The translations under genes were made by a program, and so were the position numbers. The notes beneath the pieces are model-generated. The model was given only the letters and a program-made list of their open reading frames with translations, had not been told where the DNA came from and made no database searches. Shown one piece after another: positions 3 to 42,646 of a DNA stretch of 64,000 bases. The number at the start of each line of letters is the position of its first letter. Positions within the stretch are counted from its first letter, which is position 1. Origin of the DNA: a candidate division FCPU426 bacterium (GTDB taxonomy: Bacteria > Oederibacteriota > JAAXVQ01 > JAUVAV01); the NCBI GenBank assembly GCA_030637655.1, contig DAOWGI010000031.1, forward strand, positions 3,706-67,705. The letters are read 5' to 3'.

Positions 3-3000
3 AGAGGTTTATTAGAAGCTATTAGCCGGGAATGGGCAAACAGCCGTTTGGTCTGGGATACCGGCCAGGTTAATGAAGCACAGGTTATAGTAGCAGCAAC
101 AGCATTCCACGCAGCTCAAGCCTTTGTTTTGGGATCAATAAAAGGGATAAGAGCATGGCGCTTAAATAGTTCACCGCGTGCCAAGGCCAGAGCAATAAAT
201 CGGCTTAACCAAAATCGGCCCGGATTTGAGAACACTATCAAAGCAAATGATGTGCGCAGCGTTGAAATAAGCAGAGTAGCCAAAATGTTTGCCGGCAATC
301 CCAGGAAAACCCTGAAATTTTTGCAAGAGTTGAAACTGTCGCCCGCTGAAAAAGTTAATCTACTGCAAAACCGGGATTTTTCCAACGCTATGATTAAATA
401 TAGTCAGGAAAAAGGAAGAGCCGCATTTTTGCAGAAAGAACTGGGCAAATATTTCGGCCAAGAGGGCCAGGTCAGCGAGGCCATCAATAAATTAACTGCC
501 AAAGCAGAAATAGTTATTCGCGAGGCTATTGCCAAAGATTTAGCAAAAAGCATGGGCATTAAAAGCCTTGAAAAAGCCAATGGAATTACCCGAGGAGCAA
601 TCAGGAATATAGCCAAAGAGATAGCCAGTGCCAGAAAAACCGCGTATGGGCGTAAAGTAACAGCAAGTGAAAAAACAGCAATAGTAAGAAAGATTGCCAA
701 TGAATACCGCCGGGCTGAGCAGAATAACATTTCCCGGGCCGAAGCCAAGTCCAGAGCTGAAGTTTTTTTGAATGTGGAGCTGGGGAAAAAGGCAGCAACC
801 GACAAAGCTCAAGGTGTGCTAAAAAGTGAGGCAAAAGCTGAAAAAGCAGGAGAAAAAACCGGAACAAAATTCAGCCGTCTGAAAGAAACACTTAAAAAAG
901 CGCCAAATGCTGTTAAATCCTGGATAGAAGCGCTGGTTAACGCGCGGGCAGAAGCCAAAAACCGTATTTGGACAGAGAAACTTCACAAAGCTGAGCAAGC
1001 TTTAGAAATAGCCAACGACAAAGCTGCCTGGGATAAATCCGCGCTTCGGGAGATAAAGGCAGCCCAAAAACAGGTGGACCGCTTGACAGCTAAGCTGTTA
1101 AAAGTAACCGGCGATTTCAAAACCATTAATAGCACGGAAATTAAAAACAAGCTTAAAGAACTATCGATTGAGGACAAAAAAATATTAACTAAAAGCTTGG
1201 CAAATATAAATAAGTATGGAAAAAAGCTGGCGAAAGGCAGAAATGGCGGAACATTAAGGAAATTATGGGCATCAAGATACGCCAAAAAACTGGCTGACGC
1301 GATTGCCGAACTCCAGAAGCACAAGTTAATGGATAAAATTATGGAATCCGTGGGACTGGAAGGACTTACGGATATGAGCGAGGCAATAATCAAAGTCAAT
1401 GGGAAAGAGACCACCAGGATAAAAAATTTGGGAGAGAGTATAGCGGAAGTATTGAAAATGGTTAGAAATGAACTGGGTTTTGCCAAGCCGTTGGCAGGCA
1501 ACCGGGCGGAAATAAGAGATGAAATAGTAAAAACAATTATATCAGAAGGAGCCAAAGCTAAAGCTTTAAAACAATCAGTCGAGAGGCTGTTAAAAAAGAT
1601 GGAAAATACCCATGGCCGGATTACTGAGAAGGTTTTAAGGAAAATGATCAAAGAATCTTTGCACCTGGATACTAATGCTTATGTGGACAGCATATTTAAA
1701 GCTGTAAAAGAGGGCGTGACGTTATCGTTAAAAGATGGCGCGAAGTTAGAGGCATTAGGATACCAGGCGGTGTCGGCAAAAGAGGCGTCTCTGACAAATA
1801 AATCAGGACTTCGTACCCGGGTGGATATTGCCATAAAGAATCTCAATGAAGCCAGGGGCCTGAAACTGAACACGCAGGGAAAGAGAATCATGGCGGATGT
1901 GATCCTGCGCTTTCAAAAAGATGCTAACTACCGGAATTTCACCCGTGATGCGGACGCGCAGGCCTTCCTGTTTCGCCAGGCAGAGCTTCATTATCTAAAC
2001 CTGGAACTCCACGGCAAAAACAGCGGCATTAAAAATCTTATAGGCACGGCTTTACAACTGGCCATGGGCGGCGGAAAATCAGGTTCCGGCTTGTCCATGG
2101 AGGTGGGACGCGAGCTTTTCATGGCTAAACATCCGGGAAAAGAAGTTCCAGCCATGCTTTACATGACCAAAGACGCCACCCTGGTAATGCAGATGCTGAA
2201 GGAAGGAGCATTTAAAACCTGGGACAAACAGGGCATACTGGAAGTGCTGAGCAAAGATAATGCCGCCAAGGTAATTAAAAACGGTTTTGAAAACAACAAA
2301 GTATATATTATGGAAAATGAAACTCTAAAGCACATTGTGCTGGAAATGCGCAGCGCCGGCAAAAACGATGCCTGGATAGCAAATAAACTTCAGAAAAAAT
2401 TGGGCACAGTGGCTTGGGACGAATTTCACGCTATATTCCATACCACAGATACCATTATCGGCGCTTCGGGTGTGTGGAATAAGTTAAGCGACGGCGTGAG
2501 AGAGCAAGCGACTGATATGCTGCTGGACCTTACCCGCAGCTATGCTGAGGTAAGAAAATGGTATAAAGCAGCTGAAAAAAGCGGGATGAAATTTAATGAT
2601 ATGTTTGTAAGTATTGAAAGCGGGGTTAATAAGGAAATCCGCGGCCAGTTCACATTTAACAAAAAGGCTCGCGCGAGCCTGCTTAAAGCGACTGGATTTG
2701 ATTACAATAGATCCGGCGATGCCTTTATACTGGATAAAATGGTCAAGGTATTGTCCAGCAAAAACAAACATCAGTGGAGCGGGACCTATGTGAAAGGCAA
2801 AGGCACATCCTACGGTACTATGGAAGGCGGGGTAGGCAAACCCAACACTATAAAAGGCGACACCTTCGAGGCGGCGCTTACACATATTGAGATATTTTTA
2901 GCGGCCATGGCCAAGAAGAAGGGTTTTAATATTAATAGAATGACCAATAAAGAATTCGCGACAAAACATGATGATTTCATCAAAACCGCGGGCGACGCGC

Positions 3001-6000
3001 TGGCGCATACTACGACGGAAAGAGTTACCATGGCCGAAGCAGTACAATTAATCGGCGCGCATAATATTGTGGCTTTTTCCGGTACGTTTGAGGGGCTGGC
3101 CCAACGTACGCTTCGTGCCTGGGGCAAAACAGTGCTCAAAATTAATGCCGAGCCCCAGGTTGCCTTGAAAGAGGTGGCAAAGGGTGAGGCGACATTCACA
3201 GTCAAAATCGATGACAAGATTATATCTATTAAACAGGGTAAAAACGGCAATTTGGAGCTGGTACTAAACCGGGAAAGCGCCCGTGTAAACCGGTTTATGC
3301 TTAAAGAGGCAATGAGTCATTTAGATTCAGGAAAAGACTATGGCGGCAAGCTTACCAATCAGGCATATACGCATAGTGACGGAACTGTACTGGTACACGC
3401 ATTAAAAATTGCGAGACAGAAATATTGGGGCAATAAATCAAAGATGGTGGTAATAAACACAAAAACAGTGGAAAGATACATTGAAAGACACAAAAGAGAC
3501 ATTATGAAAAAAATCAAGGCCCAAGGCACGGATATTAAGCTTGTAAAGACCAGGGATGGCATGTTGGATATGGCGGATATTGTAACCAGAAAAGCGGTGG
3601 AAAAGGCAGTAGATATGATGTTGGAAGTTCAAGCCGGCAAGAATGTTGTCCAGTTGGTCTATGTTGACGGAATGGCCCCGGACCTCTGGAGTGTGGCTAT
3701 GGACAAAGTAGGCAAAAAAATCCAGACTCCGGAAGCAAAAAAGGACGGTAAGGTCATTCCAGCAGGCTGGAAGCAAAAGCGCATGCTTTTCGCGGCCAGA
3801 ATCGGGGAGGGCTTAAACACCTATAAAATAACCGCAGCCAATAAGGGCATGCGCGCTGAAATTATAGATATGCGCATGTCGCCTTTGGATGTGGCACGGC
3901 AGGCCGCGAAACGCGTAGGAGTATTTGATAAGAAAACCGGTGAGTTTAGACGGGCGCAGGGAACATACCACAATATAATTGATTTGAATGATACGGCCAA
4001 TGTCAAGACATCCGAAAAACAGGAATTCAAGACGTTTATTAAGAAAGCTGAAGCGAAAATGAAAAGCAGGCGTGGTGATGCGCGTTATTTTGAAATCAAA
4101 AACAAGGATGCCAAGGGCATAGAGGGTGATCTGATCCGGGAATTTTGCGATCTCTTGGTTAGTGAAGGCGGCGCTACTACGGGCATTACCAGGCGCATAT
4201 TGAACGAGGTGGATGCGGCAAAATCCGCGGATGCTTATAAAACCCAGGCCGGGATTCAGACTGAAAAAACCACTAAGTTGTCAGTAAGCAAGACCTCGGA
4301 CAAGTACATGCCGGAACTGGCGAAAAAGATTGAGAAAAATCTGCCGTCTAAGCTGCGTGAATTCCAGGGCGTGACAGATTGCCTGGCGCGGCGTACCCGG
4401 AACCAGGCAGGGCAATCAAAACTTCTGCAAAACCCCGCATTCCATACCTATCATATGCGTACCAAAGGTCTCGTGAATTGGATTCCGGGAATAGGCAGTG
4501 TGGTCAGCCACATGCAGATGCAGACTGCGGCTTTGAAAAACTCGGCAGCCCAAATATCTTTGGTCAGTGCGTATGCCAAAACCTGGAAAGAATGGAATCA
4601 GTTCGAAAATATTGACACGAAACAAGCGGAAATACGTGATCAGATGTCGGAGTTAACCAAAGAAGACCCAAAATTAGCCGAGAGTCAGGAACAAATGGTT
4701 GAGATGCAGATGGCAAAAACTTTTGGTTCAACCTGGCAGTCAGATCAGAAACAGTATGAAAAAATGAAAGCTGAGTATGGACGGAACTGGTTCGAAAAAG
4801 CTATGGCAGATAAATTTGGAGCAGATTGGCGGGTCTATCAGCGTCTGGAATCATCACTGAACGCGTTGAATATACCCTTTATTGGAAAGATCGCCGGAGG
4901 ATTTATGGCGGAATTTGTGCTTGCGCGTCAGCCCTATTTGGTGAGGTCCCTGTATAACCAATCCCTGCAAAACATAGCCCGGGTGAATGCCAAAATTCCG
5001 GTCTTGCGGGCAGATGCCGGAAAAACCATCACCTATCAGAACCAAACCATGGACAAGAACCAGGCAGTGCAGTATGTCCAGCAAAATTTGGTCATGGCGC
5101 AGTCATTGGCCAACCGGTACGAGTTTAAGCAGACACCGCAAATGGCAGGTTTACAGGCGCAGCCAAAAACATACGGAAATAACTCGCAGATACTGCAACG
5201 CGTGGTGAAAGAGCAGTTGGATTCCAGCGGTTCCGCGGCCCAGCTGGGCCTCGCTGCCAAGCAGCAATGGCACAACCTGGTGCGCGGCATCCACCGCGTT
5301 CAGTTCTTCACCCCGTTCTTTAATGTGAAAAACGGAGTGCTGATACCTTCCACGCCAACCAAACTGCTTGTGGGCGCAGCGGTTGTAGGCGCTTTTAGCT
5401 TTACCAGTCTTTGTCCCTGGGCCATGATGCTGGCGTTCATGGGTATCACTATTATTTCGGGATTTAAGAAGGACTCGGCTAAAACGGGCGCTGAAAGCAG
5501 TAATAAAATGCTGGGCTTCATGAAAAAGATGTCTGGCGGGGGCCCGGCTGCTGTGCCCATGGCCATAGTCGGTTTGGTGTCAAGTTTATTTTTTGCCCCG
5601 GCCTGGGCCGCGCCCTATGTGGTTGGTTTGGCGCTAGGAAAACTTAACAGTGAAGTTATGAATTACATCACGAAAGTGCCGGAGCAAGACAGTGAAACGG
5701 TTATTGTCAATAAAGCGTCCAAAGATACCGTGCAAGCTGTAGCAGGCGGCGGGGTGTTTGCGGAGTTTAAAAAACGCATGAAAGGCCGTGATAAGAGCGA
5801 GGCGGTTCCAGAGTTGACAGAAATTTTAAAGGAAAGCGGTGTGAAATTGGTGGCCGGAGAAAAGATGAATCATTACGGTTTTGCGCTCACACTGGCCGCG
5901 CTCTTTGACTTGGTGCCAAACGCGCTTGAAAGCGTAAAGCGCATTGCAGTTGACGCTGAAGCTGATAAAGCGGATCAACAAAAAACCAGTGTTACGGTAG

Positions 6001-7349
6001 ATAGCAGCTCTGTGAAATTCTTGGGTCAACAATTCTCAGAAAGCGTGCTTAACCAATTAATAATGGCCGCAACAACTAAGCTGTTTGGCGGCGGCACGGA
6101 AGAAACCTTAGATACCCTGACCAACTCCTATATCGTGAAATTAAAACAGCATCCGCGATTCAAGGGATTCGGCAACAACGCTTTTCAGGAATTTCTGAAA
6201 CAATACATAATGGACGGCGAAAATTTAAAAATTCTTTGCACCTCAGATATGAAATTAACAACGTTATATGAGAAAGTGAAAAGTAAAATGGGCCGCGAGT
6301 TTACAGAAAAGGATATGAGTAACCTGGCCGAAGCTTCCGTCGAATTGGAAACTGAGGCTTTTACTCTGATGAAGCAAAAAGCCGCTGAGATCAAAACAGC
6401 AGCAGCAGAAAATCAGCCGGGTATGGTGGTGGAGTTCAATACTATATTTGGTATGTCCTATGCCGCCTATCAAAAGATGATGAAGCCCTCCTGGTCACAG
6501 GAGATATTTACCAAAATTGTGGGCAAAGAACGTTTGCACAGCGAGCAAACGCCGCTTATCTTTATCCGCAGCAAATCCCAGCAGATGATCGGCTGGGGCG
6601 CGGTATCTTTGGCCGCCGGCGCGGCACTCATCCTGGGCGTAGGCACTGTTGCACCCATAATTCTAGGTATTGGCGCGGCTGTGTTCGGCGCGGCCCTGGC
6701 TTTGGAAGGCACAGCAACCTGGTTCCAGGCCAAAAAGATGGCCTTCCGTATCAATCCCACGGACACGGTGCAGGAGCAATTGGATAATGTTGTATTTGCT
6801 TCGCGCGATGTGAAGGTAGAAAGCCAGGCCAAGATGATCACTGGTAAAGAACTCAGAGCTGTAGAGGCGCTTAAGCAAAGCAAGGAATTCACCAAGGAGT
6901 ATGGCGTGCCGCCGCAAACCTATCAAGACATTTCAATCAATGCCTTGCTGAACAATGCCGGCTTTAAAAAGGCCATTGCCAATTTAAAGATCGCGGGAAC
7001 AGAACAGATAGTGTCCGAGGAAAGTCAGAACAGCGCCATCCGTCTGGCTTTGCTGCACCTTCTGCAGGCAGTGGAATCCGATGCCAAGTACAAGACCAAG
7101 ATAGCCATTGCCGGGGATATCACAAAAATCTTGGGCTTCCTGGGATTCAACATTAACATGACTTACAAGGAATACGCGGACGCGCTCTCCATTACCTTGA
7201 CACCTGAGGCAGTACCACGTACCTTGCTTGAGTATAAAAACCTCGGTCGAATTATCGAAAGTCTGGAAGGTTTTGGTGTGGGTATTAAGCTGGATATGGC
7301 GCCGCAAACACCCCAGCGGAAATTGAAGGCCGTAGGAGCGGCAGCGTAA
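3..7349 (+). CDS. Giant membrane-associated protein, 5'-truncated, with SecA/SF2 helicase-like ATPase domain and family C-terminal domain
   Basis: Frame is open from position 3 (no stop before the TTG at 48), so the true start is upstream of the window. Ordered SF2-like motifs: LAMGGGKS (~2058), WDEFH (~2415), FSGT (~3075), IGEGLN (~3801), RQAAKRVG (~3898). Hydrophobic hairpins in the C-terminal third; ends RKLKAVGAAA. Confidence 0.8.
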   Translation, partial: RGLLEAISREWANSRLVWDTGQVNEAQVIVAATAFHAAQAFVLGSIKGIRAWRLNSSPRAKARAINRLNQNRPGFENTIKANDVRSVEISRVAKMFAGNPRKTLKFLQELKLSPAEKVNLLQNRDFSNAMIKYSQEKGRAAFLQKELGKYFGQEGQVSEAINKLTAKAEIVIREAIAKDLAKSMGIKSLEKANGITRGAIRNIAKEIASARKTAYGRKVTASEKTAIVRKIANEYRRAEQNNISRAEAKSRAEVFLNVELGKKAATDKAQGVLKSEAKAEKAGEKTGTKFSRLKETLKKAPNAVKSWIEALVNARAEAKNRIWTEKLHKAEQALEIANDKAAWDKSALREIKAAQKQVDRLTAKLLKVTGDFKTINSTEIKNKLKELSIEDKKILTKSLANINKYGKKLAKGRNGGTLRKLWASRYAKKLADAIAELQKHKLMDKIMESVGLEGLTDMSEAIIKVNGKETTRIKNLGESIAEVLKMVRNELGFAKPLAGNRAEIRDEIVKTIISEGAKAKALKQSVERLLKKMENTHGRITEKVLRKMIKESLHLDTNAYVDSIFKAVKEGVTLSLKDGAKLEALGYQAVSAKEASLTNKSGLRTRVDIAIKNLNEARGLKLNTQGKRIMADVILRFQKDANYRNFTRDADAQAFLFRQAELHYLNLELHGKNSGIKNLIGTALQLAMGGGKSGSGLSMEVGRELFMAKHPGKEVPAMLYMTKDATLVMQMLKEGAFKTWDKQGILEVLSKDNAAKVIKNGFENNKVYIMENETLKHIVLEMRSAGKNDAWIANKLQKKLGTVAWDEFHAIFHTTDTIIGASGVWNKLSDGVREQATDMLLDLTRSYAEVRKWYKAAEKSGMKFNDMFVSIESGVNKEIRGQFTFNKKARASLLKATGFDYNRSGDAFILDKMVKVLSSKNKHQWSGTYVKGKGTSYGTMEGGVGKPNTIKGDTFEAALTHIEIFLAAMAKKKGFNINRMTNKEFATKHDDFIKTAGDALAHTTTERVTMAEAVQLIGAHNIVAFSGTFEGLAQRTLRAWGKTVLKINAEPQVALKEVAKGEATFTVKIDDKIISIKQGKNGNLELVLNRESARVNRFMLKEAMSHLDSGKDYGGKLTNQAYTHSDGTVLVHALKIARQKYWGNKSKMVVINTKTVERYIERHKRDIMKKIKAQGTDIKLVKTRDGMLDMADIVTRKAVEKAVDMMLEVQAGKNVVQLVYVDGMAPDLWSVAMDKVGKKIQTPEAKKDGKVIPAGWKQKRMLFAARIGEGLNTYKITAANKGMRAEIIDMRMSPLDVARQAAKRVGVFDKKTGEFRRAQGTYHNIIDLNDTANVKTSEKQEFKTFIKKAEAKMKSRRGDARYFEIKNKDAKGIEGDLIREFCDLLVSEGGATTGITRRILNEVDAAKSADAYKTQAGIQTEKTTKLSVSKTSDKYMPELAKKIEKNLPSKLREFQGVTDCLARRTRNQAGQSKLLQNPAFHTYHMRTKGLVNWIPGIGSVVSHMQMQTAALKNSAAQISLVSAYAKTWKEWNQFENIDTKQAEIRDQMSELTKEDPKLAESQEQMVEMQMAKTFGSTWQSDQKQYEKMKAEYGRNWFEKAMADKFGADWRVYQRLESSLNALNIPFIGKIAGGFMAEFVLARQPYLVRSLYNQSLQNIARVNAKIPVLRADAGKTITYQNQTMDKNQAVQYVQQNLVMAQSLANRYEFKQTPQMAGLQAQPKTYGNNSQILQRVVKEQLDSSGSAAQLGLAAKQQWHNLVRGIHRVQFFTPFFNVKNGVLIPSTPTKLLVGAAVVGAFSFTSLCPWAMMLAFMGITIISGFKKDSAKTGAESSNKMLGFMKKMSGGGPAAVPMAIVGLVSSLFFAPAWAAPYVVGLALGKLNSEVMNYITKVPEQDSETVIVNKASKDTVQAVAGGGVFAEFKKRMKGRDKSEAVPELTEILKESGVKLVAGEKMNHYGFALTLAALFDLVPNALESVKRIAVDAEADKADQQKTSVTVDSSSVKFLGQQFSESVLNQLIMAATTKLFGGGTEETLDTLTNSYIVKLKQHPRFKGFGNNAFQEFLKQYIMDGENLKILCTSDMKLTTLYEKVKSKMGREFTEKDMSNLAEASVELETEAFTLMKQKAAEIKTAAAENQPGMVVEFNTIFGMSYAAYQKMMKPSWSQEIFTKIVGKERLHSEQTPLIFIRSKSQQMIGWGAVSLAAGAALILGVGTVAPIILGIGAAVFGAALALEGTATWFQAKKMAFRINPTDTVQEQLDNVVFASRDVKVESQAKMITGKELRAVEALKQSKEFTKEYGVPPQTYQDISINALLNNAGFKKAIANLKIAGTEQIVSEESQNSAIRLALLHLLQAVESDAKYKTKIAIAGDITKILGFLGFNINMTYKEYADALSITLTPEAVPRTLLEYKNLGRIIESLEGFGVGIKLDMAPQTPQRKLKAVGAAA

Positions 7350-7381
7350 AAATTCGTTTTGGTCGTTGTGATTTTGATTTC

Positions 7382-7409
7382 GTAGGGGCACGGCATGCCG
7401 TGCCCCTAC
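7382..7409. repeat. GTAG-type REP palindrome
   Basis: Perfect palindrome gtaggggcacggcatgccgtgcccctac just downstream of the giant gene. Confidence 0.85.
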
Positions 7410-10711: not shown

Positions 10712-13399
10712 ATGCTTGAGTTTGAGCAGAATCCCAAAATGAAGAAGCGTAATAAAAGCAGCGCGCTGCTTGGCGTCTGCTTAACTTTGCTGGGATTTAC
10801 CATTGCCGGATATGCCAGGGACGCAACCGCGAAAATAGAACCCCGTAAACAGGCTGAGCAGATGTACAACCTGCTCAAAGATCGTTGTTCCATTAAAAAT
10901 TACACCTGGGATCATTTGGCTGAGGATTTTACTGTTACTTTCACACTCTTGGATGGGAGCGTACTGACTTACAATGCGCGGGGTTGTCTCATCCGGCGTC
11001 AAGCGCCCAATGGTCTGGAAACCCACTATGAGAAAGGTTTTCCGGTTAAAAAAATATCGCCGCCAGGTGAGGTCATATCCCAAACCGAATATGTCCGGTC
11101 CTCCCAGGAAAAAATTAAATGCGCGGTAACCCGACAAAAAGGATTTCTGACAGCAAGTTTTTATACGGAAGACGGTGATATTCAGCACGAAACCATACAT
11201 ACGCCGGCCGGCCGGCTGTATCGTTACAACTTTACTTGGGCCGACGATCGCAGAACTTATAACTATTATGAGACGCGTGCCTGGGATGGGAAGACCAGCT
11301 ACTTTTGTGTTTCCGCGAACACAGGACTTATTAGGGAACAGTGGCGGGTAACGACGGACTTGCGGCAAGTGTGGGAAGAGCAGCATCGGGTATTTACAAA
11401 ATTGCTCATACGGAGATTTGAAGACGATTATTCGGATCGTTCACAATTTAAAAAAGATGAGCACGGACAAATCCGCGGTGATGTGCTTTTAAAAAATATA
11501 CAACCCAACAAAATGCTTCCGCTTGACGTTTTTGACAAATATATGCAAAAAGGCAACCTGCAGTTTGAGGCTGGATGGAAGTATATAGATTGCTCGGAGG
11601 TGGTGATCTTCCTGCCGTTAGTCGAATTTGTCGAACAAAAACGAGTGATCGCGCAAAAGGTGAAGGTGAAAAAAACCCAAGTATATGTCTGGGTGAAAAA
11701 ACGGCGAAAATGGGTCCAATATCCATATGATTCACGGAAGGAAAAGATAATTCCCGGCAACCGGCGGGGCGATGCGCGCCTTGAGGCTCGTTTCCCCAAA
11801 ACGGATTGGAAAGTTATTCCTGAAAAGATGGGGAAAATGAAATTAAATGTGCGCCTGCAGATCCCGCCGGAATTATTGGAGCAACAGCGTCTCCATCTCT
11901 CTCAGCAGCAATATGCTGATCCGGATTTTTATGACCTGTATGCTCTGATGCCTTCGGCTCAGGAAAAAAGCTCTGAGCCCACGCCGGCGGTCCGGGCGGG
12001 CCGGGTTGTGACCCGTTTCGCCGGGCAGGAACTAAAAACCTTCAAGTTGGAATTGATCCAGCAAATTAAAAATCAATTGCAGAACAGTCCGCAGCTTAAT
12101 CAACGCGATAGCCGGCAACAAACCCAAGCCCAGGTAATCTTGCGGGCCCTGCGGCCTGAGCAGGTACTCTTTGTAAAAGAACTCAAATCGCAGCTTAAAC
12201 AGTTGCGGTGTATAGAGCATCCGGCCTTTGCTGAAATACGGTATCGGGAATTGGAAATATTTTTACCCAAAGTACAAAAACAAAAAGTGTTTAAAATTAT
12301 CAATCGCGTAAAAGAAAACCGAGGTCTGGTAAAAATCTGGAAAGAAGATGCGGATCATCCGGCCGGTGGATATTGGACCACGTACACGTTGCGTCCTTTT
12401 CGCGATAAGTTGTGCCAACGAGGCGGCCACTTGATTATTCAAGTGGATGAAAGCCGTTTTGAGTGGATACTATCCTCAGAGCGGCAATCCCTGAGGGTTT
12501 CCGGTTCGGTCTTTCTGGCCAAGGGTTCCGGGAAAAAGATCATTCCGGCCAGGGCAACAACAACCGGGATTGCTGCTGCCACAGAAGATAAGCTGACGGC
12601 ATTGGAAAGCCTGGTGCCATTATCCGGTCCGGCCGGGCAAAACAAACTTCCCAAAGTGCTGCAGGCGGCAATTCCGGATATTCGTTTGGGAATAGGACTT
12701 CAGTGTTGGTTGCTTACCAAGACAGCCGGCTGGTTAGGGCGCGGACGCTCTGGAGTGCGGGTACTACAGAGCGCTACTCCTGCCAGGGGTGGTGAGGTTA
12801 AGGTCCTGGAAAAATTGGATTGGTGGGGACACGTAAATGGATACCAACGTGTATTCCTACAAAATCAAAAAGAGCGTTTGCTGGAAACCTACAATCAGGA
12901 AAAGCAGTTAACCTCAATGCGTGATCTTTTAGGGAGCACATACCAGGTTACGTATTTGGCAGACAATAAAATTGAGGTCGTACGCACACAGGGCGGGCAA
13001 CAACAGGTGCTGCGTTTTGAGCAGGGTCAGTTAAAAACCGTTTTGCTCAGTGCCGGCAATCAACTTGAGTATAACAGTAATGAGAAAATGCATCAGGTTA
13101 ATTTGCTTACTGAAAAAGGGGAAGTCGTTTTTGAGAAACTGTATTTAACTTCCGGGAAACAAGTAGGAATGAAGTTTGCGCAGGGTGAAAAGATTGCCTA
13201 TCATTACCAGAAAAATAAATTAATTCAAATTCTTTTAATGAACAAGGAAGGGCAAACAGCACGCTTGCTGGTCAACAAAAAAGGCCGGATAGTAAAACAA
13301 TCCGGCAATGGAAAAATAATTTATTTTGCCAAAAAGCAACTGGATTTCATTTTGCCGGATATTTTTACACCTGTAACAATTCAATTTGGGCTAAAATAA
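10712..13399 (+). CDS. Secreted protein with degenerate YD/RHS-like beta-hairpin repeats
   Basis: Signal peptide (MKKRNKSSALLGVCLTLLG...ATA); repeats TYNARGCLI, FYTEDGDI, TYNQEKQL, VNKKGRIV in N- and C-terminal blocks around a non-repeat core. Confidence 0.65.
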   Translation: MLEFEQNPKMKKRNKSSALLGVCLTLLGFTIAGYARDATAKIEPRKQAEQMYNLLKDRCSIKNYTWDHLAEDFTVTFTLLDGSVLTYNARGCLIRRQAPNGLETHYEKGFPVKKISPPGEVISQTEYVRSSQEKIKCAVTRQKGFLTASFYTEDGDIQHETIHTPAGRLYRYNFTWADDRRTYNYYETRAWDGKTSYFCVSANTGLIREQWRVTTDLRQVWEEQHRVFTKLLIRRFEDDYSDRSQFKKDEHGQIRGDVLLKNIQPNKMLPLDVFDKYMQKGNLQFEAGWKYIDCSEVVIFLPLVEFVEQKRVIAQKVKVKKTQVYVWVKKRRKWVQYPYDSRKEKIIPGNRRGDARLEARFPKTDWKVIPEKMGKMKLNVRLQIPPELLEQQRLHLSQQQYADPDFYDLYALMPSAQEKSSEPTPAVRAGRVVTRFAGQELKTFKLELIQQIKNQLQNSPQLNQRDSRQQTQAQVILRALRPEQVLFVKELKSQLKQLRCIEHPAFAEIRYRELEIFLPKVQKQKVFKIINRVKENRGLVKIWKEDADHPAGGYWTTYTLRPFRDKLCQRGGHLIIQVDESRFEWILSSERQSLRVSGSVFLAKGSGKKIIPARATTTGIAAATEDKLTALESLVPLSGPAGQNKLPKVLQAAIPDIRLGIGLQCWLLTKTAGWLGRGRSGVRVLQSATPARGGEVKVLEKLDWWGHVNGYQRVFLQNQKERLLETYNQEKQLTSMRDLLGSTYQVTYLADNKIEVVRTQGGQQQVLRFEQGQLKTVLLSAGNQLEYNSNEKMHQVNLLTEKGEVVFEKLYLTSGKQVGMKFAQGEKIAYHYQKNKLIQILLMNKEGQTARLLVNKKGRIVKQSGNGKIIYFAKKQLDFILPDIFTPVTIQFGLK

Positions 13400-22800: not shown

Positions 22801-23746
22801 GGGAAGCTTATCTCTGCTCAGTGGCGGAGCAGTCACCGTTGCTCTGGCCGGTGGTTCCGCGGCTATGTTCATTGGGGGCGGAGTGGCTGCTGCCCTAGGA
22901 TTGATGGTATTAATTGGGACCGCTTTTATGGTTTATCGCCAAACCAAAATTCCGGCAGTGGCAGATTCTGGTGAAGGTGCTCCGGCGGGTGCGTTGGCAA
23001 AAACAGGACTCCTTACTAAACTAATATCGAACATCAAAGACCGCCAAGTCTTGGGTGAAGCAGCGCAACCCGGAGCCAAAAAAGTCAACCCCTTCCTGCT
23101 CAATTTACGCGAGAGCCGGATTGGCCGGGCGTTGCTGTCTCGCCGCGGCATGCCAACTGGACTTCGCTTGATGATGCTCTTACCCAGCCCGGCCATACGC
23201 GGCTTGCTGCGGGTAGTGGTGGCCGGCGCTATGGCTGCGGCCTGGATAGGTATGGTCGTGTTAGTCGGAAACGCTAATAGTGAACTGGCAATACTTGTAA
23301 TTGTGTCCGGCATTGCGGCCCTGGCGCCGGCTAAGTATCTCAGTTACCAGCTACGTACAACAGTTTATTCACAAGTGGGTGGACAGCTTGTCAATAGCCC
23401 ATGGATGAAAAACAAATTAGCGAATATGGAACAGAATTGGAATGAAGCCAAGGTAATCAGCATGCTGCAAGGTCTGCTCACTATACTGGAAGCTGTGAAG
23501 GACAATGCTCAGGCTCGCGAAGGTGTGCTGGAAGTTATGGCGCAAGTGCCATATAAAGAACGGAAGACCGTGCTATTAACAACCAAAGATGGACAGAAGA
23601 TGACCACCCGATCATTGCCAACAGTAATATTTGAACCATATTTGGCATGGAGAATGCTGCGAATATTCCCATCAATAATTATTGATGGGAAGGAATTTAA
23701 GATGCCGCAACTACGTCAGCCCAGAGCTATGGACAGTTCTGCATAA
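13826..23746 (+). CDS. Giant modular membrane protein (3306 aa): TIKI/TraB-like N-domain, GGDEF domain(s), multiple TM hairpins, family C-terminal domain
   Basis: gggaga RBS; long signal peptide ending VSFA; QDLH...VEG...ERSH...GGFH; GGDEF fold DVDSLKLYNNFYG...RPSGDEG...GKNKV at ~19290-20017; ends RAMDSSA. Confidence 0.85.
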   Translation: MLPNIKFPKLDIAAALSLSAWQKSHRQLWTKVLVIMISITFLLPYVSFAFQPGTYPTDLVGAFGYTPLKANGAAIHIKPEWGRVTSSFHGTSNKTIVYIQDLHCNYEVQSNISFMLERLLKKNGLRLVGVEGESTPINVSQLSSIPILEVKKSVGQYFLQRGRITGPEYQSIMSKQPLILQGIESESLYLDNKDTLLKFLNEESQGYCEDLRYALERLKSPLYNIELAKLDHKQEDYDLENITLENYCDFLLLEAKKAGVEIKPYKVMRLYAIDHKLPITAAVDYEKLLAEAQALDRAIRGKYYTSPEQRRLDHYIYVLKIMENLVNISATQKDLTYFRRHREEFKITNLLHFLEDISYRFALHPDMDPGILKMDEYLNLAAKFYLVADERSHAFVENLTRAMKKHQQNTSVLITGGFHAAHVEKALRSQNISFITVKPRITRTDVENPYFSLLRNQKTPLERLLAQNENIFAVRSFFSRLLNFKLNRRYMETMCEIVTGYQLAVKQGLRGDDLQTAFINARKKNPADNPNLNIQLVEESSNPKNKVFVFRFVNDEENTHVVIRPNQTTNYQTMVESEVLYGNNYQFEFVSAEYFKDNRAAILGTPAPKRAGVKALTDMVLQISGITNPITRAIGGLALALGVGKHQPTLTVGLGRLSLIAWLINAGKLLSALGSGFSNITQSMATGWRQWHVNFAERNSLLMAWIAGISFTLLAHSVIMGATPLVPIAFMAAFTWSIGSLMHNNWFQPLASLVLLPRDDLIARAVQWGREAYGFGENDIVSTPREIILERIMTLAQGNPVLAEFIDNRADRLALAGMAYNEGQKTWTAGTAIGNVEALAQDFMEAETLAEQLAAGTKIANLKSTGNSPLAELIRNLQAKPNLETEEIILGMQHALNPERLMPECISPAQREAIKTVLADFKNVKVKLVQVGLINDVDFTPGVKQYAAMDEKLKELLGEFGKQMETYAIEYVSGDIERRRTAVAKAEVLAKLKPYSLQVKYLSDIITNAKAVINKAADLGDFLKGSEAARIATQSVRAMIANATPLVEAYANIEQALAAQDFSVEKAQALLEAIDREFADIEAVMAISDQTWKLRNQITAYNAQVKVEQPAAVKAASRQKAEKTTEDILNRAAPMNKATDENVLKILAANLKILGFKILNNGQAVLSAKAMRQKVRKIKGRIARERKILDKSFRILSRKKDLTKNEDEELGRLRRVLSQHDDALMELREISLAFKESGNLTFDIRVSEEMESDQQVILSAVGNVICFNAKNIPRFSAKKSRAQLMRRIARASGHIEGLELTQLGKDRLNIISKLLAGYKLKGTDMAFVAESKRAFMGTQTAEGRPALGVFWTAQQRDVMKEWLSSQRWQDYLNIFAMFDKAIPTDELQSMVPGNEADKTHQLGVAALEQITEALVQSEARMFSGADVLEVLRHMVESRLSVQNAVKLFQQEQVDYTGEKLLVEYENYEETQGPITSVKAVHSFIKTVFEGEAIAITPALRMFVDRLIANEQEALGDDNYAMELYLNFEEQAGQKLAGLPTAWQVQITEKLRSALDNALSRNAELIDLLIAKKLESLFKTQEAVAYALRNSPQFLRGNFPDKIFKGKQNLIISKMRQIDRFWFLNQTAKLNDEGSYSNRAPPLIERFMRDLQAALTKSSSQRIYFAFFFSLALVLITQAIILGFPVTAMILGPNIVPIAIILVSSLILSIRSKLPSSWLKIGTTVISLFAIVFSGYMILSGNLSAAPLSSMAPQPEEIASSLSSNFKPWAPGALVFLAGISRPIGHGLASIKKWAAGSKEPRMLDAVEGEAKLIEMLKETGNAWIVSSDVDSLKLYNNFYGKKITNVILDEIIETRVNALHSPQVKEIIKKYGITSDELYASRPSGDEGMDILPEKLSSEDVTAIMNIVRQAIPQALHLKYMAYDIKGKQTPDQEKKLRKAANAYNAKAKDEQKVRVFRDSDSDLRLLVKVEGKTDLGNKIIEELNLADEKGALHAVPITLSQNITKLDYPDNGYMLTPTCTFGASQAGRVLDKEEDFKKWALAAFKLADRLLLRGKDEGKNKVVVDDLEEKFEKLSRPPPKEGFMDKDQIAGITEAREAHLKNLDKKDAAGNKLYDQLVPYHFSIDGLKQKIKERLQELKGRDDFEPEIHFARASSDRGPDKILVFVLTPQGSASFKLEGSTGVELEGSYAFEGEENQGFAAVNERYDHAGGNVVISLPHYIIHQMTQANRHNWLNPNDLQGSFEIFVKQLEQEMNLPDNQVEINLSGACCGVSTNDLFAHLEDEAEIDATIGEMFRSLEETMLAKSEEDLGKITAHDHEEHQPLALARRARLGKQATIKLFKNKQAQLRMVKEVREARAELAKAKADKAPVFLSAASLLGLASPFLSGLDISPIITAVLAFGGIIGSLFLLENSFKTFSTIFRQLKTAFTPAAWRQYLAWARANPMIILAIGAGLYALFNPEASGETGYLAAMGIIGPSLELVDKDIRVKDTNSEEFEKFVQENTESRELRKLKIWVSDQTGSAGYNVFSPAQPLTETRISEKVSKLTDESLETMAKKGLMAIRTELEVKLGFYSEADLNEAFKYCVRKNNTMKVADAVATIKKKRLEYAAQNSEQVDFYLKVKFFLNNVKNENIKNIKPEVVKNFLDFIREQGYSVEHMQHTPEKFIEKFITAKNPSNELGESEEIKTQINQIIAALPEKRESEEYSIDGPAIAEAINGFKAFYLDTFSSLGQNNPEAIGFVYSRLEAWKFRVNENEREKVDGVAVNVNDVKYGRLSSDIKKTVGMLKAFIAKQQVIRLEKQAVDVVLTTSEDQKCWTKFGNDDYAALEKLVTAREQARAAADFEKIKQTFLKRIAEVSYFGTMADLRNLNYFYQLILAAITDQEYKELLENGKIEKDSQENQRKVLLGLEENGHPEIAAQLVLYYEVINEVLEGIDEIDVDWDQVRQNIERVCLEKSIANGVMAPKVAGSNILGKPEAGNIPGVSLFTLGSLSLLSGGAVTVALAGGSAAMFIGGGVAAALGLMVLIGTAFMVYRQTKIPAVADSGEGAPAGALAKTGLLTKLISNIKDRQVLGEAAQPGAKKVNPFLLNLRESRIGRALLSRRGMPTGLRLMMLLPSPAIRGLLRVVVAGAMAAAWIGMVVLVGNANSELAILVIVSGIAALAPAKYLSYQLRTTVYSQVGGQLVNSPWMKNKLANMEQNWNEAKVISMLQGLLTILEAVKDNAQAREGVLEVMAQVPYKERKTVLLTTKDGQKMTTRSLPTVIFEPYLAWRMLRIFPSIIIDGKEFKMPQLRQPRAMDSSA

Positions 23747-31128: not shown

Positions 31129-33705
31129 GTGCGTTATGATCGATTCACAATTAAAAGCCAGGAAGCCATTCAACAGGCGGCTGAAACAGCCCAAGAGAAC
31201 GGCAATCCGGAGCTGACGCCTTTACATTTGTTATTCTCTCTACTCCAGGAGGAAGGTGTCATCCGTTCCTGGTTAAGCAAATTGGGTGTGGAGGCCCAAA
31301 CACTGTTGAGAATCGCGCAAGCGGAAGTAGATCATCTGCCCAAGGTCAGCGGCGCCAACGCCCAGCCGGCGCCCAGCCAGGAGTTTAGCTTGCTGCTGGA
31401 TTTGGCCTGGAAAAAATCACAAGCCATGCAGGATGAGTATGTGTCAACCGAGCATTTGTTTCTCGCTGCGGCGGAAGATAAAGGCGCGGCCGGCAAGGTT
31501 TTATCAGCTTCAGGAATACAAAAAGAGGCGCTCCTGTCGGCTTTGCAGGAAATTCGCGGCACGCACCGCGTGACTGATCAGAATCCGGAGGATAAATACC
31601 AGGCCTTAAAACGCTATTGTCTGGATTTGACTGAGCAGGCGCGTTTGGGCAAACTCGATCCGGTGATCGGGCGGGATCAGGAAATCCGCCGCGTTATTCA
31701 AGTGTTATCCAGACGCAAAAAAAACAATCCCGTGCTTTTAGGTGAACCCGGCGTGGGTAAGACAGCCATTGCCGAAGGACTGGCCAAAAGAATTGTGGAC
31801 CAGGATGTGCCTGAAGGATTGAAAAAGAAACAGGTGTTGTCTTTGGACCTGGGCGCGCTTTTGGCCGGCGCCAAATACCGGGGAGAATTTGAAGACCGGC
31901 TCAAAGCAGTGCTCAAAGAGATTGCCGCTGCCAGTGGAGAAGTTATTTTATTTATTGATGAATTGCATACGGTGGTGGGCGCGGGCGCGGCGGAAGGCGC
32001 CATTGATGCTTCGAACATGCTCAAACCCGCCCTGGCACGGGGTGAATTGCGCTGTGTTGGCGCCACGACCTTGAATGAATATAAGAAATATATTGAAAAA
32101 GACGCGGCTTTGGAAAGACGCTTCCAAGTCGTTTTGGTGGGCGAACCTACGGTTGCGGATACGGTTTCCATTCTGCGCGGTTTGCGCGAGCGCTATGAGT
32201 TGCATCATGGCGTAAAAATTAAGGATGCCGCCCTGGTCGCGGCAGCAGAACTAAGTCACCGGTATATTCAAGGACGTTTTTTACCGGATAAAGCTATTGA
32301 TCTGGTGGATGAGTCGGCAGCCTGTTTGCGTACGGAAATCGACAGCCTGCCGGCTGAATTGGATGAAGTGGAGCGAAAGGCGCGTCAATTGGAAATCGAG
32401 CGCCAGGCGCTCAAACGGGAAAGCGGTCAGGCCGCGCAAGCGCGCAGTCAGGAATTGGAAAAAGAGTTGAAAATACATACTCAAAAGCGTGATACCATGC
32501 GCCAACAGTGGCAGCAGGAAAAACAGGATATTGAACAGGTGCAAAAGATCAAGGAGCAACTGGACCGGTTAAAGCAGGAAGAAGCCAACGCGGAACGGGA
32601 AGGCAATTTGGAGCGTGTGGCGGAAATTCGTTACGGCCGTTTGCGGGAACTGCAGGCTGAATTGGAGAAAACCGAACAGGCGTTAACAGAAAAAAGCCAG
32701 GGCCAGGCCTTGCTCAAGGATGATGTGGATGAGGAAGATGTGGCTGAAGTGGTGGCACGCTGGACTGGAATTCCGGTAACTAAACTATTGCAAGGCGATA
32801 TGACCAAACTAATGACTATGGAAGAGGTGTTGAAAAAACGTGTGGTCGGACAGGATGAAGCGGTACAAGCGGTTTCAGACGCTGTGCGCCGGGCGCGGTC
32901 AGGTTTGGCTGAACCCAACCGGCCGGTGGGATCGTTCATGTTCTTAGGACCCACGGGTGTGGGTAAAACCGAATTGGCGCGGGCTTTGGCGGAATTTCTG
33001 TTCAATGACGAAGCAGCTATGGTGCGGATTGACATGTCCGAATACATGGAAAAGCATTCAGTGGCACGCTTGATTGGCGCTCCGCCCGGATACGTGGGCT
33101 ATGAAGAAGGGGGTCAATTAACCGAAGCAGTGCGGCGCAAACCATACAGCCTTATTCTATTCGATGAAATTGAAAAAGCGCATTCTGAAGTATTTTCTGT
33201 TTTGTTGCAGGTATTGGATGATGGCCGCTTAACTGACGGCCAGGGCCGGACAGTGGATTTTCGCCAGTCCCTGATCATTATGACCAGTAATATAGGCGGT
33301 CAAACCATATCTCAGATGAGCGGGCGTTCGGAAGAGGAAATGCGCCAAGCGGTTATGACGGAATTGCGTGCGCAGTTCAAACCGGAATTTTTAAACCGTT
33401 TGGATGATCTGATTCTGTTTCACCGATTGTCCGAACAGGTTATCGCGCGGATTGTTGACCGCCAAGTAGCCCGGTTGCAGGCGCGGTTGGCCCCAAGGCA
33501 TCTGCGAATTGAACTGGATGATAAAGCCCGGCAATTGTTGGCCAAAGAAGGATATGATCCGGTTTATGGCGCGCGTCCCTTGAAGCGCGTGCTGCAGCGC
33601 CTGGTGACTGATCCACTGGCCAAACGTTTGATTGCCGGAGAGTTTGTTGTGGGGGATAAAATTCTAGTGCAGGTTGTGGATGGAAACCTGAAGTTGTTAA
33701 AGTAG
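31129..33705 (+). CDS. clpB: ATP-dependent chaperone ClpB
   Basis: Clp N-domain, [14 protein letters not shown], long coiled-coil M domain, [20 protein letters not shown]; aggagg RBS before the GTG. Confidence 0.98.
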
Positions 33706-34318: not shown

Positions 34319-35917
34319 ATGCGCCACAACATCGCAGGAATTACACTGCTATTCATGCTTTTTGCGCAATCCGTATTAGCCGGCGAACCGGCGTTGATAC
34401 CTGTGAAGCAACCTCTCAAGAAAAAAGCCGTTGAAATTTTGGTAAAGTATAGTCAGGGGAGCCGATTCACCAAGCAAAGCGGTTACTTGGGAAAGCTTCC
34501 GGCTTTGCAATGCGAACGCTTTTGTGTTCCAAAACAGCAGACCGCTGAGGCCATGGCCAAAAGCAGGCAGGCGGATCCGCAGGTGGAATGGGTTCAACCT
34601 AATTATTGGCGTTATGCCTTGGCCACTGAAGTGGTTCCTGATGATCCGTACTATCGTCCGGAACAAAATCAACGTCAGTATCAGCAATGGTATCTTTCCA
34701 AAGTGAATGCCAATTTTGCCTGGTCTGTGGCAGATGGCAGTGAGAATATCACTGTTGCGGTGGTGGACTCAGGAGTGGATTTGAACCATCCGGATTTAAA
34801 AAATCGTCTGGTGCGCGGCGCGACTTTGGTAAGCCAAGAAGATTATTCTCCAACTTCCGAAGGTATGGATGATCATGGTCATGGCACCCATGTGGCTGGT
34901 ATTATCGCGGCGCAAAGTAACAACAACCTCGGGATCAGCGGCTGTGCCTGGAAGGGCAAAATCATGCCCATCAAAGTTTTGAACAATAAAGGCGAAGGAC
35001 TGGATTCGGATATTGCTGTTGGCATTCGTTGGGCAGTAGACGCGGGAGCGAAAATTATTAATCTCTCCCTTGGCGGATATGGCGACGATGGCAGTCCACC
35101 GCCGGTATTGCAGGAGGCAGTAGATTACGCGTACTCTCAAGGATGTTTAGTCATTGCTGCTGCGGGAAATACCGGCGATAATACAGTTCACTATCCAGGC
35201 GCCCTGGAACATGTTATAGCAGTTGCTGCTACAGATCCGTGGGATCAGCGCGCTGCTTATTCCACCTATGGTTCCTATGTGGATTTGGCAGCGCCCGGAG
35301 GCGCCGGCGCAGATCAATTTTCCCGAGCCACAGGTATGTTAAGCACCTATTGGAATGAAAACAGCCATATTACCGATAAATCCTCCGGGTCTGAGGCAGG
35401 AGAGTACGCAATCATGGCAGGCACTTCCTTTGCGGCGGCCGTGGTTTCCGGAGCCGCGCTGGTGGTCTGGGGAAATCAACCAAGCTATACAGTGGACGAG
35501 GTTGAAAATGTTTTATTGGATAGTGCTGTGGATGTGGGAGCAATTGGCGCGGATATCCGGACCGGTAATGGCCGAATAGATCTTTTGGCTGCTCTGGGTA
35601 ATCCGGTAGTTGAACGGACGGCCTTAACCTCATACAACTATCCCAATCCGTTTTATCCGGAAAAAGATACTACTACCCGGATTGTTTTTTTTCTGGATGA
35701 GCCTGCTGAAACAAAAGTCAGGATATATGATTCAGCGCGGGAATTGGTCTGGCACAAAAAAATAGCGGCCGCGGAAACCCTGGCAGGTAAAAATACGCTG
35801 ACTTGGGATGGAACCAATGATTTAGGACAAAGGGTCGCAAATGGCGTGTATTTTTACCGGTTAACCACAGCCCCAGGATTAGCCGGTAAATTAAAAACCA
35901 TCGCGGTGGTGCGATGA
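34319..35917 (+). CDS. S8 (subtilisin/thermitase-like) serine peptidase with T9SS-type-A/FlgD-Ig-like C-terminal domain
   Basis: Signal peptide; catalytic VVDSG, HGTH, GTSFA; C-terminal YNYPNPF...WDGTNDLG..VANGVYFY. Confidence 0.92.
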   Translation: MRHNIAGITLLFMLFAQSVLAGEPALIPVKQPLKKKAVEILVKYSQGSRFTKQSGYLGKLPALQCERFCVPKQQTAEAMAKSRQADPQVEWVQPNYWRYALATEVVPDDPYYRPEQNQRQYQQWYLSKVNANFAWSVADGSENITVAVVDSGVDLNHPDLKNRLVRGATLVSQEDYSPTSEGMDDHGHGTHVAGIIAAQSNNNLGISGCAWKGKIMPIKVLNNKGEGLDSDIAVGIRWAVDAGAKIINLSLGGYGDDGSPPPVLQEAVDYAYSQGCLVIAAAGNTGDNTVHYPGALEHVIAVAATDPWDQRAAYSTYGSYVDLAAPGGAGADQFSRATGMLSTYWNENSHITDKSSGSEAGEYAIMAGTSFAAAVVSGAALVVWGNQPSYTVDEVENVLLDSAVDVGAIGADIRTGNGRIDLLAALGNPVVERTALTSYNYPNPFYPEKDTTTRIVFFLDEPAETKVRIYDSARELVWHKKIAAAETLAGKNTLTWDGTNDLGQRVANGVYFYRLTTAPGLAGKLKTIAVVR

Positions 35918-36894
35918 GAAACGTATGTCAACCAACAGGATGGTTGCTCAGCCTCGTAGTACTGCTGGTTGCTGGAACTGTTTATGCGGAAGGGACCGGC
36001 GGACAGGCCGGCGCGTATTTGAAGCTGGGTATGGATGCGCGTGCCAAGGCTTTGGGCAGCGCTTATACCGCAGTGGCCACGGATGCTGCTGCCGGATATT
36101 GGAATCCGGCAGGTTTGGGATTGGCGTTGCGCCAGCAGGTCATGGCCGCCTACACGGCCTTTCCTGAGGGCGGTGATTATTCACAAATCGCCTATGTCCT
36201 GCCTGTGAGCGAGTTCACATTTCCTGAGGATCAGCGATCCGCCGGTACGGGTCAATTTTCACTAGGATCTTTGGGCATTACGATCCTGAGGTACGCGGCG
36301 GCTTATAATATTGAAGCGCGCCAGGTGGATTCCATCAATCCGGATTATTATTTTTCAGACATTGAAGGCTGCTATGGATTCGCCTATGGTATATCATTGA
36401 ATCCGGAGTGGAGCGTGGGGTTGGGTGTGAAAGGATTGTATCATGAATTGGATCAGGTGGATGCCACCGGGTTTGGGATGGATGCAGGTGTAGTTTGGCA
36501 GGGATTTCCCGGGCTTTCCGTGGGGTTCGCGGTTCGCGATGCCTACAGTAAATTGCAGTGGTCTACCGGCTGCCAAGAAGTGTTTCCCGCCACACTGAAA
36601 GCCGGCGCAGCGTACCAGCGCGAGTTTGGAAAAGCCCAGGTAGTTTTGGTGAGTGTTGAAGCTACACACAATTTAACTTCAGCGCTTCTAAGGCTGCACG
36701 CTGGTTTGGAATATGCCTTTGAAAAAATACTTTTTATACGGATGGGTTATGATGACGGGGTTTTGGCCGCGGGCGGCGGGGTACGTATTCCTTGGTTGGG
36801 TTGGGAACAAGCTGCCTGGCGGATTGACTATTGTGCCCAGGAAGATCGTATTGTAGGCTGGGACCATTGGTTTAGCTTGAAACTGGAGTTGTGA
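35914..36894 (+). CDS. PorV/PorQ-family outer-membrane beta-barrel protein
   Basis: GMDARAKALGSAYTAVATDAAAGYWNPAGL signature; alternating beta-strand pattern; ATGA overlap with the S8 gene. Confidence 0.85.
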   Translation: MRNVCQPTGWLLSLVVLLVAGTVYAEGTGGQAGAYLKLGMDARAKALGSAYTAVATDAAAGYWNPAGLGLALRQQVMAAYTAFPEGGDYSQIAYVLPVSEFTFPEDQRSAGTGQFSLGSLGITILRYAAAYNIEARQVDSINPDYYFSDIEGCYGFAYGISLNPEWSVGLGVKGLYHELDQVDATGFGMDAGVVWQGFPGLSVGFAVRDAYSKLQWSTGCQEVFPATLKAGAAYQREFGKAQVVLVSVEATHNLTSALLRLHAGLEYAFEKILFIRMGYDDGVLAAGGGVRIPWLGWEQAAWRIDYCAQEDRIVGWDHWFSLKLEL

Positions 36895-42566: not shown

Positions 42567-42646
42567 TTGTAGGGGCACGATGCTTGTCCGACATCACTTT
42601 AGCGACGTCGGATGCCGTGCCCCTACCGCCAAAGGAAAAATGGCAC

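Follow-up and report, generated by a model that had tools for sequence, protein, structure and literature searches.

Bacterial proteins of giant size, from several thousand residues to more than 100,000, have been discovered only recently and are still poorly understood. The ends of bacterial proteins can carry signals of various kinds: the PDZ domains of Tsp/Prc and Ctp, which reside in the periplasm, read small, uncharged last residues as a free end, FtsH initiates on flexible cytoplasmic tails of membrane proteins, and the type IV signal of the Bartonella Bep proteins is composed of a BID domain of about 100-140 amino acids and, at the extreme C-terminus, a short stretch with a positive charge. 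Here, we analyse the C-termini of three giant proteins (giants 1, 2, and 3) that are encoded in a 64,000-nucleotide stretch of contig DAOWGI010000031.1 from a candidate division FCPU426 bacterium, in the following referred to as the window. The tails of these giants and of their homologues are designated types 1, 2, and 3, and their nearly invariant Ala-Ala or Ser-Ala ending is the subject of this work.

The closest described system is the ssrA tag, i.e. a 'C-motif 1' degron of ClpX. Ala-Ala-COO- is the chief determinant of ClpX recognition (PMC7652416), and of the bacterial readers of this end ClpX is the one known best. An E. coli screen (PMC10862746) reports that short polar residues or Gly at position -3 weakened Ala-Ala tags, that tags with Gly or Ser before Ala-Ala were enriched only 0-2-fold, and that Ala-Ala alone is insufficient; by this source, an ssrA-like ClpX degron is marked by a hydrophobic residue (Leu) at position -3 in place of Gly or a short polar one. 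The giants resemble these degrons in that they have a free Ala-Ala carboxyl end on a tail predicted to be accessible and unstructured. Moreover, the genome encodes clpP-clpX, its ClpX retains the reading loops (GYVG, the pore-2 stretch, and the RKH loop), and the tag of its own transfer-messenger RNA (tmRNA; ssrA), DEPQLALAA, has the LAA ending. The likeness to the ssrA degron, as pointed out in the initial annotation, thus extends to the Ala-Ala end, the flexible tail, and the LAA-ended tag of the genome itself, but not to position -3, where Leu is found in only 1 of 86 tails. The giants' ending further differs from ssrA in being genome-encoded and located on full-length giant membrane proteins, in being preceded by basic instead of acidic or neutral residues, and in having a conserved domain of 115 amino acids upstream.

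As to secretion signals, the tail resembles the Bep signal in that it also combines a folded domain with a short positive tail, but no BID structure is found among the fold-search matches of the tail domain, the giants are polytopic membrane proteins, and an invariant Ala-Ala end is not part of the BID signal. In contrast to what is expected for a type I secretion signal, the giants have a signal anchor and 4-17 hydrophobic segments, with no recurrent transporter within 4 kb. None of the three giants matches a type IX C-terminal domain (CTD) of Pfam or NCBIfam, whereas neighbouring subtilases do match the type IX model CHU_C, and the tail model is an alpha/beta structure with five helices, as opposed to the beta-sandwich of a type IX CTD. 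Finally, the giants' ends differ from PEP-CTERM and LPXTG signals as they lack a terminal hydrophobic helix, the last 20 residues being basic and polar and ending in small residues.

Results

Conservation of the last residues

All three giants of the window end in small residues (DSSA, TGAA, and GAAA), just as first described, and the terminal residues are conserved in their homologues. The type-1 homologues end in DSSA, DSAA, LSSA, DNAA, NSSA, DSAA, GSAA, and ENAA, i.e. [SN][SA]A in 8/8 cases, the type-2 homologues in xAA or xSA (8/8), and 18 of 21 type-3 homologues in Ala, the others having Val (2/21) or Ser (1/21) at this position. Altogether, 65 of 86 unique tails are Ala-Ala-ended and 17 Ser-Ala-ended, and position -3 is occupied by Gln (18), Ser (15), Gly (15), Asn (10), Ala (9), Arg (8), Val (7), or Leu (1).

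The codons for the terminal Ala vary synonymously (GCG, GCC, GCT, or GCA), the stop codons of the tail genes differ, and the DNA downstream is unrelated. Thus, the terminal residues are selected at the level of the protein, and this selection is strong for the last two of them. These two are nearly invariant, whereas the ~15 residues preceding them are variable, basic, and predicted to be flexible, which supports the earlier proposal that the end carries a signal read as a free terminus. Palindromes resembling repetitive extragenic palindromes (REP-like; GTAGGGGC...GCCCCTAC) are located just past the stop codons of giant genes, in the window at about 7381-7409 and also at several other giants. 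That such palindromes, which are abundant here, supply the Ala-Ala-stop ending can be ruled out on the basis of the variation in codons and stops and of the unrelated DNA that follows them.

Giants 1 and 2 have ~470 N-terminal residues in common (32% identity, E 8e-61 in a whole-protein BLASTP, which detected this N-terminal homology only and no match between the tails). In this region, termed the head, D101, H103, C104, N105, E107, and Q109 as well as G416, G417, and H419 (GG.H) are invariant among 20 paralogues. Grouping the frames of the genome by the head only, which avoids defining the group by its ending, yields 23 frames with a complete 3' end, 20 of which end in Ala, 14 in Ala-Ala, and 18 in [AS]A, the remaining three ending in AV, AV, and SS. 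Among the other open reading frames (ORFs) of at least 100 amino acids, only 155/2384 are Ala-ended and 12/2384 Ala-Ala-ended, and an Ala-Ala ending is absent from the other ORFs of at least 1000 amino acids (0/64). These counts bear on the enrichment of xAA and xSA ends that had been suggested as a check. The same picture emerges when ORFs are ranked by length: the 30 longest ORFs of the 3.28-Mb assembly comprise 21 Ala-ended ones (15 with Ala-Ala, 4 with Ser-Ala), as compared to Ala-Ala endings in 1/59 ORFs of 1000-1999 amino acids and 0/396 of 500-999 amino acids.

A profile of 39 tails searched against 1.84 billion representatives retrieved 73 proteins at E <= 0.001, 35 of them at E <= 1e-10, and nearly all matches extend to the last residue of the protein. 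Ala is the last residue of 69 of these 73, with Ala (54), Ser (14), or Met (3) at position -2; of the four exceptions two look like a spurious match and a differently called end. Similarly, 44 of 51 giants of 1818-5786 amino acids that were chosen by head similarity alone are Ala-ended (31 AA, 7 SA, 4 QA, 1 MA, 1 DA), and at least two of the seven without a final Ala are labelled partial by their sources. Some of these 51 giants are assigned by their sources to Firestonebacteria, FCPU426, Elusimicrobia, and Omnitrophota. In distant giants with the head, including one that its source assigns to Elusimicrobia, the end is ...TAA or ...TQA after an Arg-containing, helical-looking stretch.

Homology between the tails

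Based on the three sequences of the window alone, the similarity of the tails exceeds chance only marginally. In BLASTP with the last 130 amino acids, tails 1 and 2 score 20.8 bits and tails 1 and 3 20.0 bits, and tails 2 and 3 give no match. When local scores for the same 130 residues are compared to 1000 shuffles, the pair 1-2 (z 3.9; score reached by 3/1000 shuffles) and the pair 1-3 (z 3.2; 4/1000) stand out from the shuffled controls, the latter less so on the last 100 residues (z 1.8; 66/1000), whereas the pair 2-3 does not (z -1.1; 920/1000).

Orthologues of the tails from related genomes, the counts of which include the window's own genome, permit a profile-profile comparison (hhalign). 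The type-1 tail was found in 12/41 genomes, among them 10/10 within the same family, the type-2 tail in 8/17, and the type-3 tail in 13/17 genomes. The profiles of types 1 and 2 match with a probability of 96.9% (E 2e-10), from which we conclude that the tails of the 3306- and 2260-amino-acid giants are homologous at the level of sequence profiles. Type 2 also aligns with 24 other tails of this genome from end to end, reaching the last column (82.6%, E 9.7e-6), and type 1 matches the genome's main tail family weakly (E 0.0033). Type 3 shows no significant match to the other tail profiles (E 0.33, 0.031, and 0.039), nor do enlarged alignments of 21 and 86 sequences over 108 columns reach significance (E 0.0018, probability 15%). 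Word-index searches for type-3 relatives returned one 399-amino-acid fragment and the query itself, their length windows excluding most giants. A hidden Markov model (HMM) from 22 other tails of the genome matched none of the three window tails at E <= 10. Hence, the window tails appear to be divergent members of the tail family, with the homology of type 3 not established by sequence, i.e. the conserved C-terminal domain that the initial annotation had assigned to all three giants is confirmed for giants 1 and 2, but for giant 3 it is not significant by sequence.

Predicted structure of the tail module

The AlphaFold2 model of the type-1 tail, based on an alignment of 39 rows, has a predicted local distance difference test (pLDDT) score of 91.3 and a predicted template modelling (pTM) score of 0.81. 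It consists of five helices followed by the order strand-strand-helix-strand and closes with ~15 residues of coil (pLDDT 61-80). The folded domain starts near position 23339, ~110 nucleotides upstream of position 23450, where its beginning had been placed before. For the type-3 tail (10 rows; pLDDT 76.4) the last 110 residues are modelled as helix-helix-strand-strand-helix-strand, with the final 17 residues disordered (pLDDT below 50), which is consistent with a fold common to type-3 and type-1 tails.

Foldseek identified no match to the tail domain model in the PDB at E <= 0.001, the ESM Atlas contained no usable match for the domain, and the VIA wide structure search gave a best Z of 6.4 that covers helices only, a level rated common by the tool's own note. 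Likewise, PDB sequence searches with giants 1 and 3 gave no hits, and no Pfam or NCBIfam family matched in any of the three giants, tails included. Judging from these models, the tail domain is a new family with a confidently predicted fold and no solved relative.

According to the predictions, the end module corresponds to the last ~135 residues and comprises an alpha/beta domain, an Arg/Lys-rich linker of about 15-20 residues, and an obligatory free [Ala/Ser]-Ala-COOH. The last 20 residues contain on average 4.2 Lys/Arg and have a net charge of +2.0 (86 unique tails). A strand motif of the pattern hydrophobic-x-hydrophobic-Asp/Asn and a basic pair about 8-12 residues before the end recur in all tail types, type 3 included, and the length of the linker, judged by eye, looks similar among the aligned tails.

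Distribution of the tail family

The genome, the proteome of which the initial annotation had proposed to scan for other carriers, contains 26 tail copies, as compared to 2-11 in its relatives, in frames of up to 13,678 amino acids. The 3' ends of several giant genes are 230-490 nucleotides away from the end of a contig, and several giant genes begin right at the edge of one (C4, C21, C40, C46, and others); since contigs tend to be interrupted near these paralogous genes, the copy numbers of the giants are lower bounds. The longest head-bearing gene of the assembly is itself incomplete: a frame on the reverse strand of G000:C73 (3062-39709 in reverse-complement coordinates) starts with the head and runs off the contig after more than 12,216 amino acids.

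Within the phylum, the tail profile is present in 15/99 genomes, i.e. in 10/10 and 4/4 genomes of two families of one order and in the window's own genome, and was not found in the remaining 84 (0/84). Recognisable copies of the tail domain were thus detected in a single bacterial order only. In this genome, the head is present in each of the 22 complete carriers of main, type-1, and type-2 tails.

Topology and middle regions

The carriers start with a signal anchor and contain 4-17 hydrophobic segments, which are often paired. Between head and tail lie middles with domains that depend on ATP, SAM, or NTPs, among them PGK, NTP-transferase, protein-kinase, DnaJ, methyltransferase, AAA_5, HATPase_c, GT1, and metallophosphoesterase domains. 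Aldose epimerase domains and LRR/Arm repeats also occur, all as single copies with membrane hairpins between them (loci L133-L156, e.g. G000:C115:147-15695), and database relatives have further domains, e.g. (d)CMP kinase, PEP-utilising, and SecA.

In types 1 and 3 a hairpin is located upstream of the tail, in type 1 immediately before it. This hairpin has Lys/Arg on both outer flanks and none in its tight turn, both in the type-1 homologues in which the two helices were found and in 10 type-3 homologues. By the positive-inside rule this charge pattern places the tail in the cytoplasm, where it probably resides; the cytoplasm-type enzyme domains of the middles point to the same compartment. 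The head, which follows the signal anchor, should be placed outside.

The type-3 giants have a different start. The open frame of giant 3 amounts to 3683 amino acids on its contig, as compared to 5516-8131 amino acids in its relatives, and as it is open to the first bases of the contig, the 5' end of this gene is unassembled. In the relatives, the type-3 giants begin with a basic stretch and a hydrophobic helix, i.e. a signal anchor (7/7 N-terminal regions), and the head model matches none of these seven regions at E <= 1e-3.

Gene neighbourhood

The features of the window are listed in Table 1. The order type-3 giant, 895-amino-acid protein, type-1 giant, type-2 giant, ClpB, S8 subtilase (window 3-36894) is kept across genera of the family, as seen by comparison with G009:C1:204145-273765, G002:C3:131253-159996, and G005:C4:45359-70200. 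ClpB directly follows the type-2 giant in 7/8 related genomes examined, and in at least G009, G002, and G005 the 895-amino-acid gene separates the type-3 gene from the type-1 gene. The first ~250 residues of the 895-amino-acid protein (10712-11480) recur at 25-34% identity in other frames of 1205-6179 amino acids, in this genome and in related ones, e.g. G000:C56:38540-39181. Further downstream (34319-36894 and 40941-43612), the window contains two gene pairs in which a subtilase gene precedes one for a PorV-like protein; both subtilases have a type IX-like C-terminal domain (CHU_C / FlgD_ig), and the PorV-like matches are weak (E 9e-6 and 1.7e-5, below the Pfam cut-off).

Table 1. Positions of the giant genes, their tails, and neighbouring genes in the window.
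Feature	Position	Strand	Remarks
Giant 3, 3' part of gene	3..7349	+	Frame open to contig start; ends GAAA
Tail of giant 3, last 160 aa, ends ...QRKLKAVGAAA	6867..7346	+	Predicted element order as in other tails
895-aa protein, no assigned function	10712..13399	+	Between type-3 and type-1 giants in related genomes
Giant 1, 3306 aa	13826..23746	+	Signal anchor, hydrolase-like head, variable polytopic middle, tail module; ends DSSA
Head of giant 1, first ~480 aa	13826..15265	+	Conserved start of 30 frames in this genome
Folded tail domain of giant 1, about 118 aa	23339..23692	+	AlphaFold2 model
Basic linker, predicted to be flexible, and C-terminus of giant 1, ...KMPQLRQPRAMDSSA-COOH	23693..23743	+	Coil, pLDDT 61-80
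Stop codon of giant 1	23744-23746	+	
Giant 2, 2260 aa	23918..30700	+	Head as in giant 1, different middle; ends ...LLRFTGAA
Tail module of giant 2, last 135 aa	30293..30697	+	hhalign against type 1 and against main tail family
ClpB disaggregase gene	31129..33705	+	Directly downstream of giant 2
aa, amino acids.

Discussion

The giants carry a module with a predicted fold at a fixed position, the very end of the protein, and selection keeps its last two residues. As an invariant small free end, a flexible linker, and a conserved domain are combined with unrelated middles and different N-termini, a reader of free C-termini is called for; we infer the compartment of the tail, its reader, and the outcome of the reading. 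Tentatively, we favour the possibility that the tail is a cytoplasmic tag that is read from its free carboxyl end by an AAA+ motor (ClpX or FtsH) in the manner of a weakened ssrA tag. The exposed Ala-Ala-COOH end would be taken up by the motor, with ClpX being the prime candidate and membrane-bound FtsH, to which a floppy end in the cytoplasm would be suited, an alternative, and the folded domain would present or gate the end, perhaps by docking an adaptor. Since position -3 is polar or small and Leu is nearly absent from it, the tag would have to be weak or adaptor-gated, or the reader a different one; it might thus act as a weak, conditional version of the ssrA degron. The outcome may be that giant membrane proteins, which are very costly, are removed or extracted in a regulated manner instead of being destroyed constantly.

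Several points weigh against a tag read by an AAA+ motor. The Leu typical of position -3 in ssrA-like degrons is found in 1/86 tails, most of which have Gln, Ser, Gly, or Asn there, and it is difficult to see why 26 proteins that are so costly should have a degron built in. ClpB, although a conserved neighbour of the type-2 giant, is not known to read Ala-Ala ends, and its adjacency is suggestive, but not evidence of reading. As to the compartment, a paralogue on contig 43 (3627 amino acids) has only one strong membrane helix separating the kinase domain from the tail; with the kinase inside, this single helix would therefore put the tail outside. Moreover, a scan of the last membrane helix over 90 proteins gave mixed charge patterns, and hydrophobicity scans, which are crude as regards topology, do not fix the overall topology of the carriers.

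Alternatively, the free small-residue end might be the ligand of a C-terminal-peptide binder that does not unfold its target, e.g. the PDZ domain of a periplasmic Ctp/Prc protease, another carboxylate-binding partner, or the head of the giant itself or of a neighbouring giant, and would then serve in processing, docking, or head-to-tail assembly. This is unlikely, but has some points in its favour. The giants' last two residues fit the preference of Tsp/Prc for small, uncharged last residues, and the genome encodes one S41 (Ctp-type) peptidase. The head and the Ala-Ala end co-occur across distant lineages (44 of the 51 head-bearing giants being Ala-ended), the linker appears to have a similar length in the aligned tails, and the topology of the contig 43 paralogue would place its tail on the same side as a periplasmic reader. 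However, the flanks of the hairpin put type-1 and type-3 tails in the cytoplasm, i.e. away from a periplasmic protease and from a head that is expected outside, and the type-3 giants retain the ending although their N-termini lack the head (0/7). An Arg/Lys-rich, floppy tail would also be unusual in a periplasmic protein. In a predicted complex of the head (residues 52-480) and the tail, the scores were 0.18 and 0.30 as compared to a mark of 0.32, which speaks neither for nor against such a contact.

Quite improbable is the explanation that the tail is merely the conserved structural end of one paralogous family and that Ala-Ala is kept for folding, packing, or the efficient termination of translation in very long genes, but is not read. 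Without exception, the 22 complete carriers of the main and the type-1 and type-2 tails are also head-bearing, so that the co-occurrence of head and tail is largely explained by common descent, and neither the survey of neighbouring genes nor the prediction of the head-tail complex identified a partner. In the former, an all-versus-all BLAST of the ORFs within 4 kb of 27 carriers, a recurrent neighbour was rejected as partner, as there was one cluster of six members, six clusters of two, and none common to the carriers. On the other hand, the last two residues do not change, although they follow a variable stretch of ~15 residues with predicted disorder, which argues against the last two being packed. 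Furthermore, the ending is retained in tails whose remaining sequence is too diverged to be detected as well as in the headless type-3 giants, and other long genes do not have it (0/64 Ala-Ala-ended).

Very unlikely, finally, is an uncleaved C-terminal export signal of the type I or BID kind, in which a translocase ATPase would recognize the domain together with the positive tail, since, although a two-part module of a ~115-amino-acid domain and a basic tail forms the invariable end of two giant families that differ in their N-termini and paired hydrophobic segments recall secreted membrane-inserting effectors, the carriers have N-terminal signal anchors, 4-17 predicted membrane segments, and cytoplasm-type enzyme domains, no gene for an ABC exporter, a membrane-fusion protein, or a coupling protein recurs within 4 kb of 27 carriers, and no secretion-signal model of Pfam or NCBIfam matches the giants. 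A classical secretion or sorting signal, as originally put forward, is therefore unlikely, given the signal anchors, the cytoplasm-type domains, the hairpin flanks, and the lack of a recurrent transporter neighbour.

A description of the tail module was not found in the parts available to us of the literature on giant bacterial proteins, including 10.1101/2023.11.21.568195 and 10.64898/2026.06.07.730766, supplements aside. Terminal recognition tags are known in kind; the domain family and the Ala-Ala rule that applies to giants across phyla are new. The end module thus looks like an undescribed end-of-protein recognition signal, and its ending connects the giants with the kind of C-terminal recognition whose chemistry is understood best in bacteria.

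Going beyond a weakened ssrA-like tag, one may speculate, although this is doubtful, that Ala-Ala-COOH and the module presenting it constitute a dedicated end-of-giant mark on giant membrane proteins of at least four little-known phyla, which would be displayed only when the giant is fully translated and would be read by an AAA+ protein in order to license, time, or extract it. If true, this would be a new C-terminal targeting system that is built on ssrA chemistry, but serves completed instead of failed proteins. For annotators, the ending offers a simple way to tell complete from truncated giant genes. The near-invariant free Ala-Ala end, shared by giants that are unrelated in other respects, provides a testable handle on how cells make, check, and dispose of their giants.

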